DNA of 64,000 nucleotides from a virus, in IMG/VR virus record IMGVR_UViG_3300037499_000265, positions 32,001-96,000 of that record; one strand, given 5' to 3'. Under the pieces are notes generated by a model that had not been told where the DNA came from, ran no database searches, and worked only from the letters and a program-made list of their open reading frames with translations. A program made the position numbers and the translations under genes. Shown one piece after another: positions 13,067 through 58,887 of this stretch. Position 1 is the first letter of the stretch. The number at the start of each line of letters is the position of its first letter.

Positions 13067-13317
13067 AGATCTCCTACCAGGTCGGACTCGCCTTCGACGA
13101 AGCTGACGATGTCGAGGCTCGTACGGGATACGAGGAGCTGGCCAACCTGTCGGACTACACCGCCGAGAAACACGAGCTGTTCGCTTACCTGCTGATGATG
13201 GCCGTGCGGCTCGAGTGGCGGATGGCAGACCGGTCCAGGGAGTACGAACTGGACCGTCAGCGACGCGAGGAACGCCGACGGGAACGAGCTGAGAAAAAGG
13301 CTGCCGAAAGTACTTGA
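13063..13317 (+). CDS. Hypothetical protein with charged C-terminus
   Basis: GTGA overlap with upstream stop. Confidence 0.5.
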   Translation: MKISYQVGLAFDEADDVEARTGYEELANLSDYTAEKHELFAYLLMMAVRLEWRMADRSREYELDRQRREERRRERAEKKAAEST

Positions 13318-13342
13318 CACGATCGTCAGACCCCGATAGTCT
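13314..13342 (+). promoter_or_regulatory. Near-consensus promoter driving the non-coding array
   Basis: TTGACA-17 nt-TAGTCT. Confidence 0.7.
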
Positions 13343-13353
13343 CGTAGGAGTAG

Positions 13354-13910
13354 GTCGGGTGGGGGTCAAGCCGCTTCGGTCCGGATGACTACAACTCTCC
13401 GGTCGTCGTGGTCCCCGCCCATCCGACGAAGGAGCCGACGAGCTGAAACACACTTGCCAGACCGCCAGCGAGGCGAGAAGGTGGGTAGACAACTCCACAG
13501 CGTGGCACAGGAGGTTCCTCCATCATCAAGCTCCGTCAGGGGCTTTCCGCAGATTTACCTCCCGCCACGTCTTCAACAACTTCATAGATGTGCTGCGCCG
13601 GGTAGGCACGGCTGGACGGTTGGCCGGAAAGCTTCAGCGACCTAGTCGCTCGAGGTGAGTAGGTGGGACCCGGTGCAGTGCTTGACAACTGAACAGCGGT
13701 GGCACAGGAGGTTCCTCCATCAACGCTCCTCTCGAGGAGCTCGAACAGACTACCTCCCGCCACCTCTGACAACTTCATAATGTGGCATAGGGGGTTCCTC
13801 CACAAACCACCATGTAGGTATCCATACCTCCCGCCACACTGACAACTTCATAACGTGGCACAGGGAGTTCCTCCACATCCGCATTTGGTTGCATATATAC
13901 TCCCCGCCAC
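13354..13910 (+). ncRNA. Putative multi-module structured ncRNA array (four repeated modules plus other closed stems)
   Basis: No credible ORF; bounded by promoter and terminator; repeated pairing arms with compensatory changes. Confidence 0.7.
13502..13910 (+). repeat. Four copies of GTGGCA(C/T)AGG(A/G)(G/A)GTTCCTCCA-variable-TAC(C/T)(T/C)CCCGCCAC at 13502-13568, 13699-13763, 13782-13837 and 13855-13910
   Basis: Read directly from the sequence. Confidence 0.95.
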
Positions 13911-13920
13911 GCCCGACGAT

Positions 13921-13958
13921 GGGCGCGGTTCTGTGCGACAGACCGCGCCCGTTTTTTA
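13921..13958 (+). terminator. Intrinsic terminator closing the array
   Basis: GGGCGCGGT..CTGT/ACAG..ACCGCGCCC stem followed by GTTTTTTAT. Confidence 0.8.
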
Positions 13959-13995
13959 TGTTTGATCATGTTAGACCGACGAGAAGGAGGCAACA

Positions 13996-15876
13996 ATGCG
14001 ATCCACTATCCGACTGTTCAAGGCGCTGCCGGTGTCCGGCACCGCGGGCGGTCTGCCGACAGATCCCGCGTTGGATCGGCTCACCCTGCGCCGTGGGTTC
14101 GTGTTCGACTCTAGTCTCGTCGGCGAGTACCGCAGTGTGGACCGTCTGATCTCCATGGTTGACGAGGTGTACGGCCGGGGCTCGGTCGAGCTGAACACCG
14201 CGTTCCACAAGTCCTTCGCCAAGGTCCGCGACGCCTCGATCCAGCAGCTGGTCTTCGAGCAGATCGTCCACTACTTCACCACCTACGGCGCAGAGCACTT
14301 CGGCGTGTACGACGAGAGTTCAGTCTTCGTTCCCGGTGAGCACCTCGACGCCCCGGAACTGTCCGAAGGCATTCGCGTCGTCGTCATCCGCGGGCTGACC
14401 AAGGCCGAACTCAAGACCGAGCTGCTGACGCTCGTCTCGTCCGGGATCGCCCTGGCCGAGGACACCATCGCCGACGTGCTCGACGTGGCCGCCTTCGTCG
14501 GCCTGGACGAGGCCGATCTGTCCGCCATCACCAACCGAGAGGTCCGGGCCGCGCTGTACGACCATCTCGGCATCATGCCGTCCGACCCGCAGGAGTTCCT
14601 GCGGTTCCTGGTGTACCGGGCGACCGGACAGACCCAGGTGGTCCAGAACGACTCCCTGCTCAACACTCTGCGCTCCCGGGACAACCTCGACCTGGTCCGG
14701 TACTTCCGGACGTATGAGGCTCAGACCGGCCTGCGCCGGCTCGGTGAGATCTTCCTACGGTACCGGCTGGTCTTCCTCGCCATGAAGACCAACACGGTCC
14801 TGCGCACCTACATCAACCGGATCCGTCGGGAGGCCAAGCGGTCCCACAAGCCGATGCCCGAAGACGTCCTGAACTCGGTCACGATGCACCTCAAGCGCGG
14901 CGATCTGGACTCCGGCGCGGTGTCCCAGGCGCTGGCGACCGCCAGTGTGTTCCGCAAGGCCCGGCTGGCCTACGCGCTGCGGTACCGGATGTCCGGAGCC
15001 GACGGGATCGTCTATCGGGTGCGCAACGGGCGCGCGTACGCCACCGACTTCAGCTTCCCGCTCGATATCGACGTCGAGACTGTTTTCGGCGAGGTCATCT
15101 CCTCGATCGCTGGCGACATCACGCCGAAGGTAGACGGGAAGAAGATCTTCATCCCGGCCGGACTGGCCTATGGCCTACCCTCGACCGAGAAGCAGTTCAT
15201 CGGGCACCTGCCGGCGGGGACGTCGGTGACGGTGCCGGACGGGCTAGTCGTCGGCGTGCACTGGGAAGACCAGGGCGATCACCGCATCAACCTCGACCTG
15301 TCGCTGTCCAACATCGCTGAGAAGATCGGATGGGACGGCTACTACCGGAGCAGCGGGGACGACGGAATCTACTTCTCCGGCGACCTCACCTACGCTCCGC
15401 CGCCGAATGGTGCCACCGAGGTGTTCCGCATCGGCGCCAGTGCGTACGGAACGTGGCTGCTGAACCTGAACTACTTCAACTACAACGAGGACATCGACGT
15501 CCCGTTCCGGATCCTGGCCGGACACGCCTCAGCCGTGGAGAAGAACCACGTCGTCGACCCGAACGCCCTCGTCGCGAACGCTCACGCGAGGATGGACGTG
15601 CACCAGCGGACACTCGGGATCGTCGTGTCGGGCTTCACCGAGCGACAGTTCTTCTTCGCCGGCGCCGACATCGGAGGTGGGATCACGTCCCGGCACACCC
15701 AGCGTGCCGACGTGGCGATGAAGTACTTCGAGACCTACTACGTCAACGCGATCCCACTGAACGACATCCTGGTCTCCGCCGGCGCCGAGCTGGTCGTTGA
15801 CGCTGCTGACTCGGACCTGGATCTGTCGCCGGAGGCCGTGGACAAGAACACGTTCCTCGAGCTGCTGACGACGTGA
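13996..15876 (+). CDS. 626-aa protein with helical N-terminal region and TerD-like C-terminal domain
   Basis: AAGGAGG RBS; VGVHW...NLDLS...IGWDG....FSGDLT.AP..GATE resembles TerD-family motifs. Confidence 0.7.
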   Translation: MRSTIRLFKALPVSGTAGGLPTDPALDRLTLRRGFVFDSSLVGEYRSVDRLISMVDEVYGRGSVELNTAFHKSFAKVRDASIQQLVFEQIVHYFTTYGAEHFGVYDESSVFVPGEHLDAPELSEGIRVVVIRGLTKAELKTELLTLVSSGIALAEDTIADVLDVAAFVGLDEADLSAITNREVRAALYDHLGIMPSDPQEFLRFLVYRATGQTQVVQNDSLLNTLRSRDNLDLVRYFRTYEAQTGLRRLGEIFLRYRLVFLAMKTNTVLRTYINRIRREAKRSHKPMPEDVLNSVTMHLKRGDLDSGAVSQALATASVFRKARLAYALRYRMSGADGIVYRVRNGRAYATDFSFPLDIDVETVFGEVISSIAGDITPKVDGKKIFIPAGLAYGLPSTEKQFIGHLPAGTSVTVPDGLVVGVHWEDQGDHRINLDLSLSNIAEKIGWDGYYRSSGDDGIYFSGDLTYAPPPNGATEVFRIGASAYGTWLLNLNYFNYNEDIDVPFRILAGHASAVEKNHVVDPNALVANAHARMDVHQRTLGIVVSGFTERQFFFAGADIGGGITSRHTQRADVAMKYFETYYVNAIPLNDILVSAGAELVVDAADSDLDLSPEAVDKNTFLELLTT

Positions 15877-29251: not shown

Positions 29252-32200
29252 CAGTCACAACCTCTCTGCCAGGTGTCAGTAGGAGCGGTGCGATGGTTCC
29301 AGCCTGCATGTCCAGTTCGAACCCGATGCACCGACCTTTACCAACAGTGCCAGCTGGATGACGATGGCCGGTCAGATCCCAGCCGATGTCGTCTCCGATC
29401 TTCCAGTCGACACCGTAGCGCGGATACTGACTCCATACAGCGTCGATTTTGAACACATTCGTACCATTGGCAAGCCGATCAAGCCCTGCAGCGGCGTGAT
29501 CGTTCAACGTACCGACCTGAGTGATGGATGATGATGGCATCCAGTGTCGTTCGAAGATCGGTTTCCCAGCGGCCAGTGCGACAGTGTCGATAGCAGGGTC
29601 GGAAACCGGCTGATCGTCACCCTCGCCAACCGCGTAGGCGACTTGATAGTTGCCATAGCGGCCTTCAGTTCGATCCTCGGTATAGGTGTAGATAGCGTTT
29701 GATGACCCGATTGAAGAGAATATGGACTGCTCTGTAGTCTGAAAGACCGCTGGTGGAGACTCTTCAGTGATTCCAATTCGTTTACGGGCACGGAAAATCT
29801 TTGCAACTGCCGTCTCGGTCGTGTCAGTCCAGTCGATGTCGATTGTCCATTCCGGACCTTCGATCACGCCCATCAGCTCACGTAACCGCTCATAGACTGT
29901 CGCATGGTCGGAGTAGTGGTAAGTTCTCGTTCTCAACGTTCCGGTCGCCGGCGCGTCCACCAGCAAACTGATTCCAACCCCGACGCCGGGGATGTCCTGA
30001 GCATCTTCAACCAGTCCGGTCAAGATTACTGAGGACTCGTCCTGTTGCGTCCAAGAATGGTCACGGACGAACCGGCGACGGAAGTACCCTTCTAGGCTCA
30101 CCGCACTGAACTCGGCCTGCGCAGGTGTGCCTCCCCGCCGCACCAAGGGGATGCCTGCCCAGATAGGAACGTTGTTCACCACCGCCACCAGCATGGTCTC
30201 AGCTGGTGTGGACAGTTGTTCGACCAGTGCAGCCTTCTGGATCAACGACAGTCCTGAGTGCCCGACAGTAGGGATAGGTAGCCTCAGGCTGGAAGACGTG
30301 TATGCTCCGAGAACTCGAGAGACCTGACCGACCAGATTCGGCAGCTCCGCGATAATTCGCCCAGTAGCCAGGTCACAAGACAGCCAGGTGACCTCGGTAC
30401 GGATCTCGGACACAGCGATCGTCGGCAGGCCGGGCTCCGGCGGCGGTGGTTCGGGCGGCTCCGGTCCAGTGTCGATGACCAGCTGATGCGAGAATGTCGC
30501 TGCCGCAGCGGTATATGCCTGGGCGGTGATCGTGATCGATGCGCCGGAATCGTTGACACTGAACGTACCGTACTGCGTCCGTGATTGACTGGCCCCGACG
30601 TCGTAGCTACCAGCGCCGGGGTCGAACGGCGTGGCGTCTATGCTTCCAACCACGTAGACCGGGAAACCACCCCATAGGTTGTTGGCTCCGGAGTCAAACG
30701 CGTTCGCATGAATGTCGGCGTTCATCATGACCATGCGATCAGACCAGCCGGTCGAGATGAGCAGGTCTGCTAATTCCTGCCGCTCGGTCATGAAACCTGG
30801 CCACGAATCCGAGCCGCCGTTGATCCATCGGATGGACGACACGACTACTAACGCATCGGCGGTGGACGTGTTTAGAAGATTGGTGAACCATACCTTCTGG
30901 GCCGCGCCGAGCATCGTCTTGCTCGGGCCGTCAGGGTCAGAGTTGGGAGAGCGGTAGAAACGGCAGTCCCAGACCACGAACAGCACGCGTCCGATTTGGA
31001 AGCTGTGGTAGATGGCGCCGCTATCATCCAGCGAATAGGACGGCACTCGCTCCCGGTAGACATCTGCGCCGTTCTGCTTGGTCGATAGTGTGCCGTCGGA
31101 GTTGTTCGGCCCGTAGTCATGGTCGTCCCACATGTAAACCAGCGGCATGTTGTGGTACAGCTCATGCTGTCGGCTCTGAAGTAGAACGTCGTCAAAGGCG
31201 CGGCGATAGTTGGCTAGCGACCCGCCACCGGTGATGCCGTGGCTCCCGGACCCAAGATCGTAGTAGTGCAGGTCCCCAGCGTGCAGGAAGAACAGTGGGC
31301 CTGACGGGTGCTCGCGGATCGTGTCAAAGGTTGGCGCATTTGACACCCGATCAGTCGCCAGTACGTTGCCTGTGGTGTCGGGGAAGTCCGGTGATAGTCC
31401 TGCATCACCGGATGCGATGAACGAGAACGAGCCGACCGATCCGGCTGGCGCTGGCGCGGTCCGGAACTGGCCGGTGGTACTGAAGATCTGTGCGGTGCCT
31501 TGGACGGTCCAAGTCTTACCGGTGGTGTCAGTGAAGGATGCCGCGTCGATGGGTGCAAGCGCAGGAAACGGATCAGTAACCACAACTCCGTCGATGCCGT
31601 TGCGGATCTCCGCGGCGTGTATCGTCCCCGCGAACGGCCGCCCGGTCCCACCGTCCACGGCGGCCAGGGAAGCCTCAGCGGTGCCACTGAAAATGGTGGT
31701 GGCCCCGGCGGTGGTGACCACCGATCCGAGCTGTGTCCACGACCCGGTGATGGCATCGGCGGTATAGAAGGTGACGTCATTCCCGGCCGCCCCGTTATCA
31801 GCGTCGAGGGTGGCCCGGACGGCCAGCTTTCCGCTGGTGATCGGGACTGAGACCGTCGACATGGGCAGAACCGAATTCGCCCCAGTGGTTGACCAGAACA
31901 GCGACAGCCGGCCGTCATTCTCAACCCCTAAGAAGTACGATCGCTGGCCCCCGGTCGTAACCCACTTCCCGAGGAGTGTAGCCCGCACACCATCCGGCGC
32001 GGCAGCGGTCCAGTCGTCGATGGTGACTTCGGCCCGGACGTCGAGATCCCCGATGATATCGAGCGAGGCATCGTCGGGAGTGGTGGCATAGTCGCCCGAC
32101 GTGCCGTCAGTGACCAAGCCGCCAGGGGCAAGATTCCCATCCTCCTCGATGGCGTAAAAGTAGGTGCTGCCGGGATCGAGCGCGCTGGCCGCGATGTCTA

Positions 32201-57692: not shown

Positions 57693-57764
57693 TCTCCATT
57701 GGTGTAATCGGTAGCACGGTCGGCTCTGGTCCGGCCGGTCGAGGTTCGAATCCTTGGTGGAGAG
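57693..57764 (+). tRNA. tRNA-Gln (CTG)
   Basis: Cloverleaf: TCTCCAT/GTGGAGA, anticodon loop CTCTGGT, GGTTCGAATCC. Confidence 0.88.
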
Positions 57765-57806
57765 CGACACAAGTGTCCAGGCGCAACACCGCGCTTGGCT
57801 TCCCGA

Positions 57807-58053
57807 GATGGGAGATGGCGAGATGCCAGTGGAACGGATTTACCTCGATGAGACCGACGAGCGCAACGCTCGACACATCGATGTGCAGTGGGGACGCGAG
57901 AAGCCGAACATCAATATCGGCACCACACAGGATGACCCCAACGCGAGAGAAGACTTGGGCGTGTTCATCGACCTGGTTGATCGAGGTCAGGTCAACCACC
58001 TGATCCGAGTGCTTCGCAAGGCTCGCGACCAGGCGTTCGGCCGCGACGAGTAG
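57807..58053 (+). CDS. Hypothetical protein inside the tRNA cluster (ORF track 57754-58053; start uncertain)
   Basis: C-terminal N.LIRVLRKARDQAFGRDE motif. Confidence 0.55.
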
Positions 58054-58139
58054 TACCATCAAACGGCGCAGGCGCCCGAGCCTTGCCTCAGGGTGTCTGT
58101 GCAAAGCCAGGGGTAGGTGCCCGTCCATGCTCCTGGCGA

Positions 58140-58212
58140 CGGGACGTAGCTCAGCAGGAAGAGCACCCGGCCTGGGACCGGGAGGTCGCACGTTCGAGCC
58201 GTGCCGCCCCGA
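58140..58212 (+). tRNA. tRNA-Pro (TGG), atypical
   Basis: CCCGG-CCTGGGA-CCGGG anticodon arm; C at position 33; one acceptor-stem mismatch. Confidence 0.75.
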
Positions 58213-58213
58213 C

Positions 58214-58339
58214 GATGGAAGCAGTAGGGATGCCGGTACAAGCTCGCCCGATGACGAGGTGAGGCTAGCTTCAACAGGGTCAGCGGCGTGATGAGCGCCG
58301 ATCTTCAACGACAGATGAAATGTGCCTGCCGCTTCCATC
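58214..58339 (+). ncRNA. Candidate structured non-tRNA RNA
   Basis: Closing stem GATGGAAGC-A-GTAGG / CCTGC-C-GCTTCCATC enclosing several hairpins. Confidence 0.4.
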
Positions 58340-58417
58340 AAGCGGGTCCGGTTAGTACGTCATTGTGCAACCAAGGAACACCGGAGCGAGTGGTGGGAGC
58401 GCACCAGCCCGCGGCAC

Positions 58418-58491
58418 GGCGCGTTGGTCTAGTTGGGCAGGACGCCTGATTCTCAGTCAGGAGGACGTGAGTTCGAACCTCACACGCGCTA
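58418..58491 (+). tRNA. tRNA-Glu (CTC)
   Basis: CCTGA-TTCTCAG-TCAGG anticodon arm; full cloverleaf. Confidence 0.88.
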
Positions 58492-58492
58492 C

Positions 58493-58574
58493 GCGTCGGT
58501 TGAGCAACTGGTGGCTCGCGTGGCTGTAAACCACGTCCCTTCGGGGCTTGCAGGTTCGAGTCCTGCCTGGCGCA
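58493..58574 (+). tRNA. tRNA-Tyr (GTA)
   Basis: CGTGG-CTGTAAA-CCACG anticodon arm; long variable arm. Confidence 0.88.
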
Positions 58575-58575
58575 C

Positions 58576-58649
58576 GGGGCGTTGGTCTAGCCTGGTGAGG
58601 ATCCCTGACTTTCGATCAGGAGGCGCGAGTTCAAATCTCGCACGCCCTG
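58576..58649 (+). tRNA. tRNA-Glu (TTC)
   Basis: CCTGA-CTTTCGA-TCAGG anticodon arm. Confidence 0.88.
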
Positions 58650-58703
58650 CTACTATGAGGCCATGCTGATCCGCCGCTCGTCTAGCCGCTCATCCTGACG
58701 TCA

Positions 58704-58787
58704 GGAGGGGTGGCCGAGAGGCCTATGGCACCGCACTGCTAATGCGAGTACGCGAAAGCGTCGCGGGTTCGAATCCCGCCCCCTCCG
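58704..58787 (+). tRNA. tRNA-Ser (GCT)
   Basis: GGAGGGG/CCCCTCC acceptor; loop CTGCTAA; long variable arm. Confidence 0.9.
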
Positions 58788-58792
58788 CGCAA

Positions 58793-58875
58793 GGAGGGTG
58801 GCGCTGAATGGTCGGCAACCGGTTTCGAAAACCGGGCTGGGGTCACACCCAAGGGTTCGAGTCCTTCACCCTCCG
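58793..58875 (+). tRNA. tRNA-Ser (CGA)
   Basis: GGAGGGT/ACCCTCC acceptor; loop TTCGAAA; long variable arm. Confidence 0.9.
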
Positions 58876-58887
58876 CTCTGGAGGTAG

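Follow-up and report, generated by a model that had tools for sequence, protein, structure and literature searches.

A 64,000-nucleotide (nt) stretch of the IMG/VR virus record IMGVR_UViG_3300037499_000265 (positions 32,001 to 96,000 of that record; this whole stretch is called the window below) carries four similar structured units directly ahead of a gene for a protein of 626 amino acids (aa), all within window positions 13314-15876. The question raised by this locus is what kind of molecule the units specify, and whether it works with the neighbouring protein. By comparing relatives of both the units and the protein, we found that the units are conserved RNA structures on one strand, that they accompany a single gene family in phages, bacteria and archaeal bins, and that some of their relatives enclose tRNA-like bodies or lie beside the RNA ligase gene rtcB. 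From sequence analysis we consider it probable that the region is a transcription unit for an array of small non-coding RNAs which, with the 626-aa protein, would form a particle built like Ro60 and its Y RNAs around an unrelated protein and tied to tRNA and RNA damage control.

Four units share a covarying closing stem

An initial annotation made from the letters alone had placed four modules in this region, and both direct reading and a motif search found all four at the same positions of the + strand (Table 1). Pattern and covariance-model searches of the whole 127.5-kb phage genome returned these four copies and no others, while 100 shuffles yielded 0 matches. On folding, the arms of each unit pair into helices of 5 bp and 6 bp (the latter called helix 2), separated by a 3-nt bulge that faces a single C, and together enclose an insert of 30-41 nt; fold z-scores are -4.1, -3.7, -1.4 and -3.1 for modules 1 to 4. 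The bulge reads A-N-A and faces the lone C, and an invariant UCCU follows helix 2. Two differences between copies, previously taken as signs of selection on RNA structure, are both real by direct reading: compared with copies 1 and 2, copy 4 has a double compensatory change in helix 2 (GGGAGT/ACTCCC), and copy 3 has a G-U wobble in the same helix (GGGGGT/ACCTCC).

Relatives were fetched from the protein side, which gave 80 of 261 viral and 80 of 185 cellular loci for comparison. The family consensus of this closing stem, or handle, is NNRGC-ANA-RRNNGU-UCCU-A-U on the 5′ side and U-ACNNYY-C-GCYNN on the 3′ side, so that helix 2 ends in a G-C and a U-A pair; between the two arms lie an A/U-rich, G-poor stretch, a variable element and a second A/U-rich stretch. 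As a control against circularity, the 3′ arm was placed by its conserved letters AC....CGY alone and pairing was scored afterwards. Among 159 unique relatives, the variable positions pair in 93-98% of cases, compared to 39-79% with shuffled partners, and the third pair of helix 2 appears as all four Watson-Crick types (AU 50, GC 38, UA 31 and CG 27). In a MAFFT alignment of 84 short units, 98.3% of the cells are paired as against 76.2% after shuffling, the covariation score is 0.699 as against 0.238 (a score reached in 0 of 500 shuffles), and every slid register loses pairing. The selection on RNA structure proposed from the four copies is thus matched by very strong covariation among homologues. 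Wobbles are also asymmetric among the relatives, with 158 G-U and 20 A-C combinations, and therefore the + strand RNA is the selected, functional molecule.

Searches of Rfam 15 produced zero matches across the array region, including the four units and two further segments (A and B in Table 1), in line with the earlier statement that the modules belong to no Rfam family.

The units accompany one gene family

The suspected linkage to the downstream gene family proved near-universal in the phage and cellular loci examined. About 73 of the 80 viral loci have one to eight units directly upstream of the gene and on its strand, as found by regular expression. For the cellular loci, a covariance model of the kind that the initial annotation had advised (R1, built from the 84 short units) gave 174 matches in the 80 loci, 174 of 174 on the gene strand; nearly all lie no more than about 400 nt upstream of the gene, with a few elsewhere. 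These cellular records come from about 40 Chryseobacterium species, Planctomycetes, Ktedonobacter, Firmicutes and several archaeal bins. The association also holds from the RNA side: a 16-nt handle motif marks 42 viral stretches, and the gene is present in 27 of them, mostly directly downstream and on the same strand. A pattern scan of viral contigs added a single true homologue, in a 152.7-kb phage where eight units precede a homologous gene. No other conserved protein neighbour was found across the loci examined, and the minimal cassette therefore consists of the RNA array and this gene.

Inserts fall into classes, some of them tRNA-like

The inner loops had been described as variable, which is correct for one element within them but not for the loops as a whole: they are not free-form, since they start with the invariant UCCU, contain little G, have A/U-rich ends and can be grouped into recurring classes. 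One of these, the UUUGG-loop class, is present in about half of all arrays and includes the insert of module 4. The four window units have small hairpin inserts only, among them a G+C hairpin within the 41-nt insert of module 1 and another within the 39-nt insert of module 2. Across the family, the distance from arm to arm ranges from about 20 to 140 nt.

In about 15 units of relatives, the same handle surrounds a permuted, anticodon-less tRNA-like body, in which a helix resembling an anticodon stem connects a T arm, a closed acceptor-like hairpin and a D arm. A permuted tRNA mimic is the defining trait of YrlA (PMC4201824), one of the bacterial Y RNAs, and the tRNA-like sister inserts match the Rfam model of YrlA with 36.8-42 bits (E 3e-6 to 6e-6); they stay below its gathering threshold of 69 bits since they do not match the portion of the model that corresponds to Rsr binding. 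At one locus (L090:2628-2747) the handle encloses a complete, unpermuted tRNA with trailing ACCA, which ARAGORN reports as a tRNA with anticodon undetermined. The Y-RNA-like build suggested earlier for the modules gains from these sister units.

Two other ideas about the inserts were abandoned. Mimicry of an anticodon loop by the short inserts was dropped, as CUGUUAA or CUGCUAA loops are found in just 10 of 272 units, and we do not claim that the UCCU pairs with the UGGA found downstream of it in UUUGG-class units, as this would amount to 2-3 pairs without covariation.

RtcB and tRNA genes near the cassette

In 41 Chryseobacterium-type loci the gene order is rtcB, three units, partner gene, so that the cassette replaces rsr-yrl beside RtcB; this too agrees with the Y-RNA-like build. 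A WYL/WCX regulator gene stands divergently upstream of this operon and is kept in 38 loci (for example L139:609-1622 on the - strand), making its product a candidate sensor for the rtcB-RNA-protein operon. RtcB is also encoded nearby in three further loci (L037, L041 and L100), two of them viral and one from an archaeal bin.

tRNA genes lie within 3 kb in 21 of the 80 viral loci, and all of these tRNAs (135 of 135) are co-oriented with the cassette; several cassettes are embedded in large tRNA arrays. In the cultured Synechococcus phage S-CRM01, the family gene, g174, sits in the middle of a tRNA cluster with two units before it and one after; on NC_015569 the units fall at about 132348-132477 and 134429-134480. 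The two units before g174 lie under an annotated reverse open reading frame (ORF), g173c (NC_015569; L237:2291-2437). Since g173c overlaps the handle unit at 2316-2377 and abuts the second at 2248-2306, it is probably not a gene.

The phage of the window has an RtcB of its own, a 705-aa frame at G000:C1:114218-116260, 68 kb from the array. Its Pfam match comes in two pieces (model positions 1-50 and 49-426) set about 300 residues apart, and this intein-sized insertion looks like an intein. A cluster of seven tRNA genes (Gln, Pro, Glu, Tyr, Glu, Ser and Ser) occupies window positions 57693-58876, 44 kb from the array. Three of its genes abut without a spacer (58418-58650).

TROVE, the domain of Ro60 proteins, was searched for in the same genomes. 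The window phage genome has no TROVE gene, and of five cellular genomes that carry the cassette, four have none either. The fifth, a Bythopirellula genome, has a true TROVE gene (L116:7700-9762) preceded by a YrlA (36.5 bits). This gene lies some 4 kb away from the cassette and is convergent with it. Among 151 Bacteroidota genomes, two have the cassette and ten have TROVE with zero overlap, numbers too small to conclude from.

The likely partner protein combines a helical domain and a TerD fold

The 626-aa product has hundreds of full-length relatives, including one that is 80% identical (P0002), and an exhaustive profile search at E <= 1e-30 sizes the family at 1145 clusters (50% identity). 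A search for longer, fused forms of the protein scored none, and a metagenome scan for close relatives gave distant ones only. Known domains are scarce: Pfam finds none in the protein or in 42 relatives, PHROGs and PADLOC return nothing for it, and a profile search of the PDB is empty. The AlphaFold model (confidence, pLDDT, 86) shows a helical N-domain (residues 1-380), a beta-sandwich (about 412-578) and C-terminal helices. The beta-sandwich has the TerD fold, with Z scores of 10.3 (2qz7_B) and 9.3 over 146 aligned residues and Foldseek E values of 6e-5 to 8e-4, and this C-terminal domain contains DLDxS and GD-type motifs; the Pfam TerD model (PF02342) does not match the family even at E 5. 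Two further searches point to the MXAN_6230/SCO0854 family: a local match to the NCBIfam model NF041916 (MXAN_6230/SCO0854 RING) at residues 404-479 (E 2e-8; 32.9 bits, against a cut-off of 600), and a template-modelling (TM) score of 0.60 over 507 residues in a structure search of the ESM Atlas. Conserved Arg/Lys-rich helices (R320, K321, R323, R331 and R343) would suit RNA binding.

Relatedness to Ro60 was assessed directly. Alignment by hhalign of the family to ten TROVE proteins gave a probability of 0.1%, Pfam found no TROVE domain among 43 family members, and the N-domain folded alone had no fold match above background. The structures of phiLo Ro60 and Xenopus Ro60 (1yvp_A and 9l5y_B) gave weak whole-length alignments only (Z 6.0, root-mean-square deviation 5.5-6.4), which is the noise level for helical repeats. 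Given the hhalign result, the weak structure matches and the unmatched N-domain, we do not call the 626-aa protein a Ro60 homologue.

Organization of the window locus

Table 1. Position and description of the features of the array and its partner gene in the window
Feature	Position	Strand	Description
Promoter-like site	13314-13342	+	TTGACA (13314-13319), 17-nt spacer, TAGTCT (13337-13342); direct reading
Leader segment A	13350-13487	+	Without repeat unit; fold not significant (z -0.64)
Module 1	13502-13568	+	GUGGC-ACA-GGAGGU...ACCUCC-C-GCCAC; -27.5 kcal/mol, z -4.07; R1 38.3 bits, E 2.6e-7
Segment B	13587-13683	+	97 nt; 14-bp closing stem and three inner hairpins; z -3.63 (+ strand), -2.25 (- strand)
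Module 2	13699-13763	+	Handle as in module 1; z -3.72; R1 38.5 bits
Module 3	13782-13837	+	AUA bulge; G-U wobble in helix 2, GGGGGU/ACCUCC; z -1.4; R1 47.1 bits, E 1.3e-9
Module 4	13855-13910	+	Both sides of helix 2 altered, GGGAGU/ACUCCC; z -3.1; R1 50.7 bits, E 1.4e-10
Linkers before units	13488-13501, 13573-13586, 13684-13698, 13768-13781, 13841-13854		GACAACT(T/C)CA-type
Intrinsic terminator	13921-13957	+	9-bp G+C stem (13921-13950), inner hairpin, then T6
Partner gene	13996-15876	+	626 aa; AAGGAGG ribosome-binding site 6 nt upstream

The units are bracketed by the promoter-like site and a strong terminator, as the initial annotation had it. The terminator has the expected G+C stem and T-tract. 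At the upstream end, the promoter-like TTGACA-17-TAGTCT can be read directly and overlaps the stop codon of the preceding ORF; a sigma-70 scan made no call there because the TAGTCT agrees with TATAAT at only 3 of 6 positions. TAGTCT does conform to the actinobacterial TANNNT form of the -10 element.

Two parts of the presumed transcript stand apart from the modules. Segment B occupies a module slot between two GACAACT linkers, yet is without the handle and without an Rfam match, and it may be a different RNA within the same transcript. The 3′ ends of segments A and B resemble each other. No relatives were available to compare these segments or the GACAACT linkers: the region had no blastn match among 50,697 phage records, and the metagenome scan returned distant relatives only. 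Linkers across the family are mostly 5-20 nt long, and as they are merely short, A/U-rich and G-poor, the GACAACT motif is lineage-specific. Sites of this A/U-rich, G-poor type are favoured by RNase E.

The region had been said to hold no credible ORF, and we agree. Mechanically called ORFs traverse the array (for example at 13385-13645); they run across the structured units, and none has a homologue among 80 related loci.

Comparison with known systems

The closest parallel is the bacterial Ro60 (Rsr) system, known from the Salmonella rsr-yrlBA-rtcBA operon (PMC7790460; PMC4201824) and with YrlA as Rfam family RF02553. Like Ro60 with YrlA and YrlB, the cassette encodes several small RNAs beside one protein gene; like Y RNAs, its units have ends that pair into a conserved bulged closing stem; and like YrlA, some family members have a permuted tRNA body (T arm, closed acceptor hairpin and D arm) as the insert. 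The ties to RtcB by operon and to tRNA biology are also those of the Salmonella operon, Rsr being replaced by the new protein in Chryseobacterium. The differences lie in both partners. Unlike Ro60, the 626-aa protein has no detectable homology to Rsr, and its second domain is a TerD beta-sandwich instead of a vWA domain; as for a HEAT-repeat ring closed by a vWA domain, the whole-length alignments to Ro60 structures reach the Z 6.0 given above, and the closing domain here has the TerD fold. Unlike in Y RNAs, the handle has GGC-ANA-RR...UCCU instead of the Rsr-binding motif GNCGAAN0-1G (PMC4201824), a motif that neither the window units (GUGGCAYAGG) nor the family (GGCAnAG) contain. The short units are absent from Rfam, and their arrays reach eight units.

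Phages also carry Ro60 with upstream Yrl RNAs, as in Thermus phage phiLo (PMC12135203) and mycobacteriophages (PMC4201824), where the proposed role is takeover of host RNA metabolism (PMC12135203; PMC4201824). The phiLo system resembles the window cassette in its phage location and in having at least two Y-like RNAs immediately 5′ to the gene for the protein, but phiLo Ro60, unlike the window protein, is a true TROVE/vWA ring that binds CGAA-motif RNA. The C-terminal TerD fold is shared with TerD proteins and the MXAN_6230/SCO0854 family (NF041916); unlike the latter, the 626-aa protein has no RING domain and scores far under the family cut-off. As far as our literature searches reached, no RNA partner has been described for the TerD or MXAN_6230/SCO0854 families, no paper ties this protein family or handle to an RNA partner, and nothing relevant emerged on any link of TerD to Y RNA, TROVE or RtcB.

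A further likeness is with RNA-repair operons in which, reportedly (Burroughs and Aravind, 2016), an SPFH/Band-7 scaffold has a cognate tRNA-like RNA. That system would likewise join a non-TROVE scaffold and a tRNA-like non-coding RNA in ligase-centred repair; its protein fold differs from that of the 626-aa protein.

Weighing the particle against other explanations

Several points weigh against an RNA-protein particle engaged in RNA repair. Expression and excision of the RNAs and their binding by the protein are predictions from sequence; a search for sequencing runs that contain the sequence listed one DNA run, probably that of the source sample, and no RNA run. No tRNA-like domain was found in the four window units by Rfam search or folding, and since the window phage has its RtcB and tRNA genes 68 and 44 kb away, the functional context rests on relatives. 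On the protein side, the 626-aa sequence has no recognised RNA-binding domain, and TerD domains are usually discussed as binders of Ca2+ or nucleotide derivatives (PMC7159879). Some of the motif-bearing viral stretches without an adjacent gene are real 'orphan' units elsewhere in gene-bearing phages. Finally, 15-40 nt separate the last unit from the start codon at most loci, a spacing that fits a leader or autoregulation as well.

This last point leads to the alternative in which the units are not free small RNAs but cis-acting sites in the 5′ untranslated region, through which the protein or another factor would autoregulate translation or mRNA stability. The upstream, co-oriented position of the units speaks for it as well. 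We nevertheless regard a leader as unlikely. The window differs from most loci in that its strong terminator parts the array from the gene and sets it apart as a unit of its own; arrays have 2-8 diversified units per locus, including tRNA-like bodies; units are also found downstream of the gene (S-CRM01 and locus L224) or kilobases away; and in Chryseobacterium they lie between rtcB and the gene, as yrlBA does. Autoregulation could coexist with a particle.

The units could also be canonical Y RNAs that serve Ro60/Rsr or another host protein, with the adjacent gene a passenger. The match of sister units to the YrlA core favours this, as does Bythopirellula, where TROVE and YrlA occur close to the cassette. 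The lack of the Rsr motif from the handle (PMC4201824), the absence of TROVE from most cellular cassette genomes and from the window phage, and the linkage to the 626-aa family, which spans phages, bacteria and archaeal bins without any other shared neighbour, make it quite improbable.

In all four window units the sequence UCCUCCA follows helix 2, and the 5′ arm GGAGGU is itself Shine-Dalgarno-like, so an anti-Shine-Dalgarno mimic or sponge can be pictured in which UUCCUCCA resembles the 16S rRNA 3′ terminus and sequesters ribosome factors or the ribosome-binding sites of mRNAs. About 270 short units, however, keep only the UCCU invariant; A (83%) and U (75%) prevail at the two positions that follow, where C makes up only 7-9%. 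CCUCC is rare family-wide and therefore a trait of a few high-G+C members rather than of the family, which leaves little probability for such a function.

Guides were among the roles that the initial annotation had offered, and the repeat-like layout with variable inner segments does recall a CRISPR-, TIGR- or retron-like array whose inserts would target nucleic acids by pairing. We find this very improbable, as the arms covary rather than being identical repeats, the insert classes (UUUGG and the tRNA-like body) are common to unrelated phages and so are conserved classes instead of spacers, and the longest insert matches in the phage's own genome are 9-12 nt, equal to those of shuffled controls. 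The partner has no Cas, Nop or reverse transcriptase domain by Pfam and PADLOC. The earlier remark that the array is not recognisable as CRISPR or TIGR also stands: the arms are inverted and covarying in place of identical direct repeats, with zero defence-system matches, and for TIGR-Tas the adjacent protein and 42 relatives are without any Pfam domain, hence without Nop. A DNA-level element, with each unit an interrupted inverted repeat for protein binding or recombination, can be set aside, as the excess of G-U over A-C is expected of RNA and not of duplex DNA, the arms lie anywhere between about 20 and 140 nt apart, and units are co-oriented with the gene throughout the cellular loci.

Proposed mechanism and implications

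For the particle that we favour, the conserved handle would dock onto the 626-aa helical/TerD protein, and the variable insert would present the effector element, a small hairpin in the window phage and a permuted tRNA-like body in some relatives. The array would be cut into units at the short A/U-rich linkers. The particle would likely act beside RtcB in the control of damage to tRNA and RNA, through repair, decay or as a decoy. In an infecting phage, its probable task would be to shield either the translation machinery or the tRNAs that the phage itself encodes. We are evenly divided on a broader view, that this is a widespread particle (over 1100 protein clusters in phages, bacteria and archaeal bins) which evolved independently of Ro60 to fill the same niche, whose handle-docked inserts, including anticodon-less tRNA mimics, act with RtcB, and which phages keep in tRNA clusters to sustain translation against host defences that target tRNAs.

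Ro60 with its Y RNAs is the sole well-studied protein with tRNA-mimicking small RNA partners in RtcB repair operons, and its bacterial function is still unclear. If our interpretation is right, a second, unrelated protein family with a handle of its own has the same cargo and contexts, which would mean that such a design has arisen or been displaced on more than one occasion. Tractable systems would follow in the Chryseobacterium operons and the cultured cyanophage S-CRM01, and a role would be given both to a large family of 'hypothetical proteins' and to an RNA family that Rfam lacks. As regards phages, the cassette points to an RNA-based accessory of tRNA clusters and may bear on counter-defence against anticodon nucleases.

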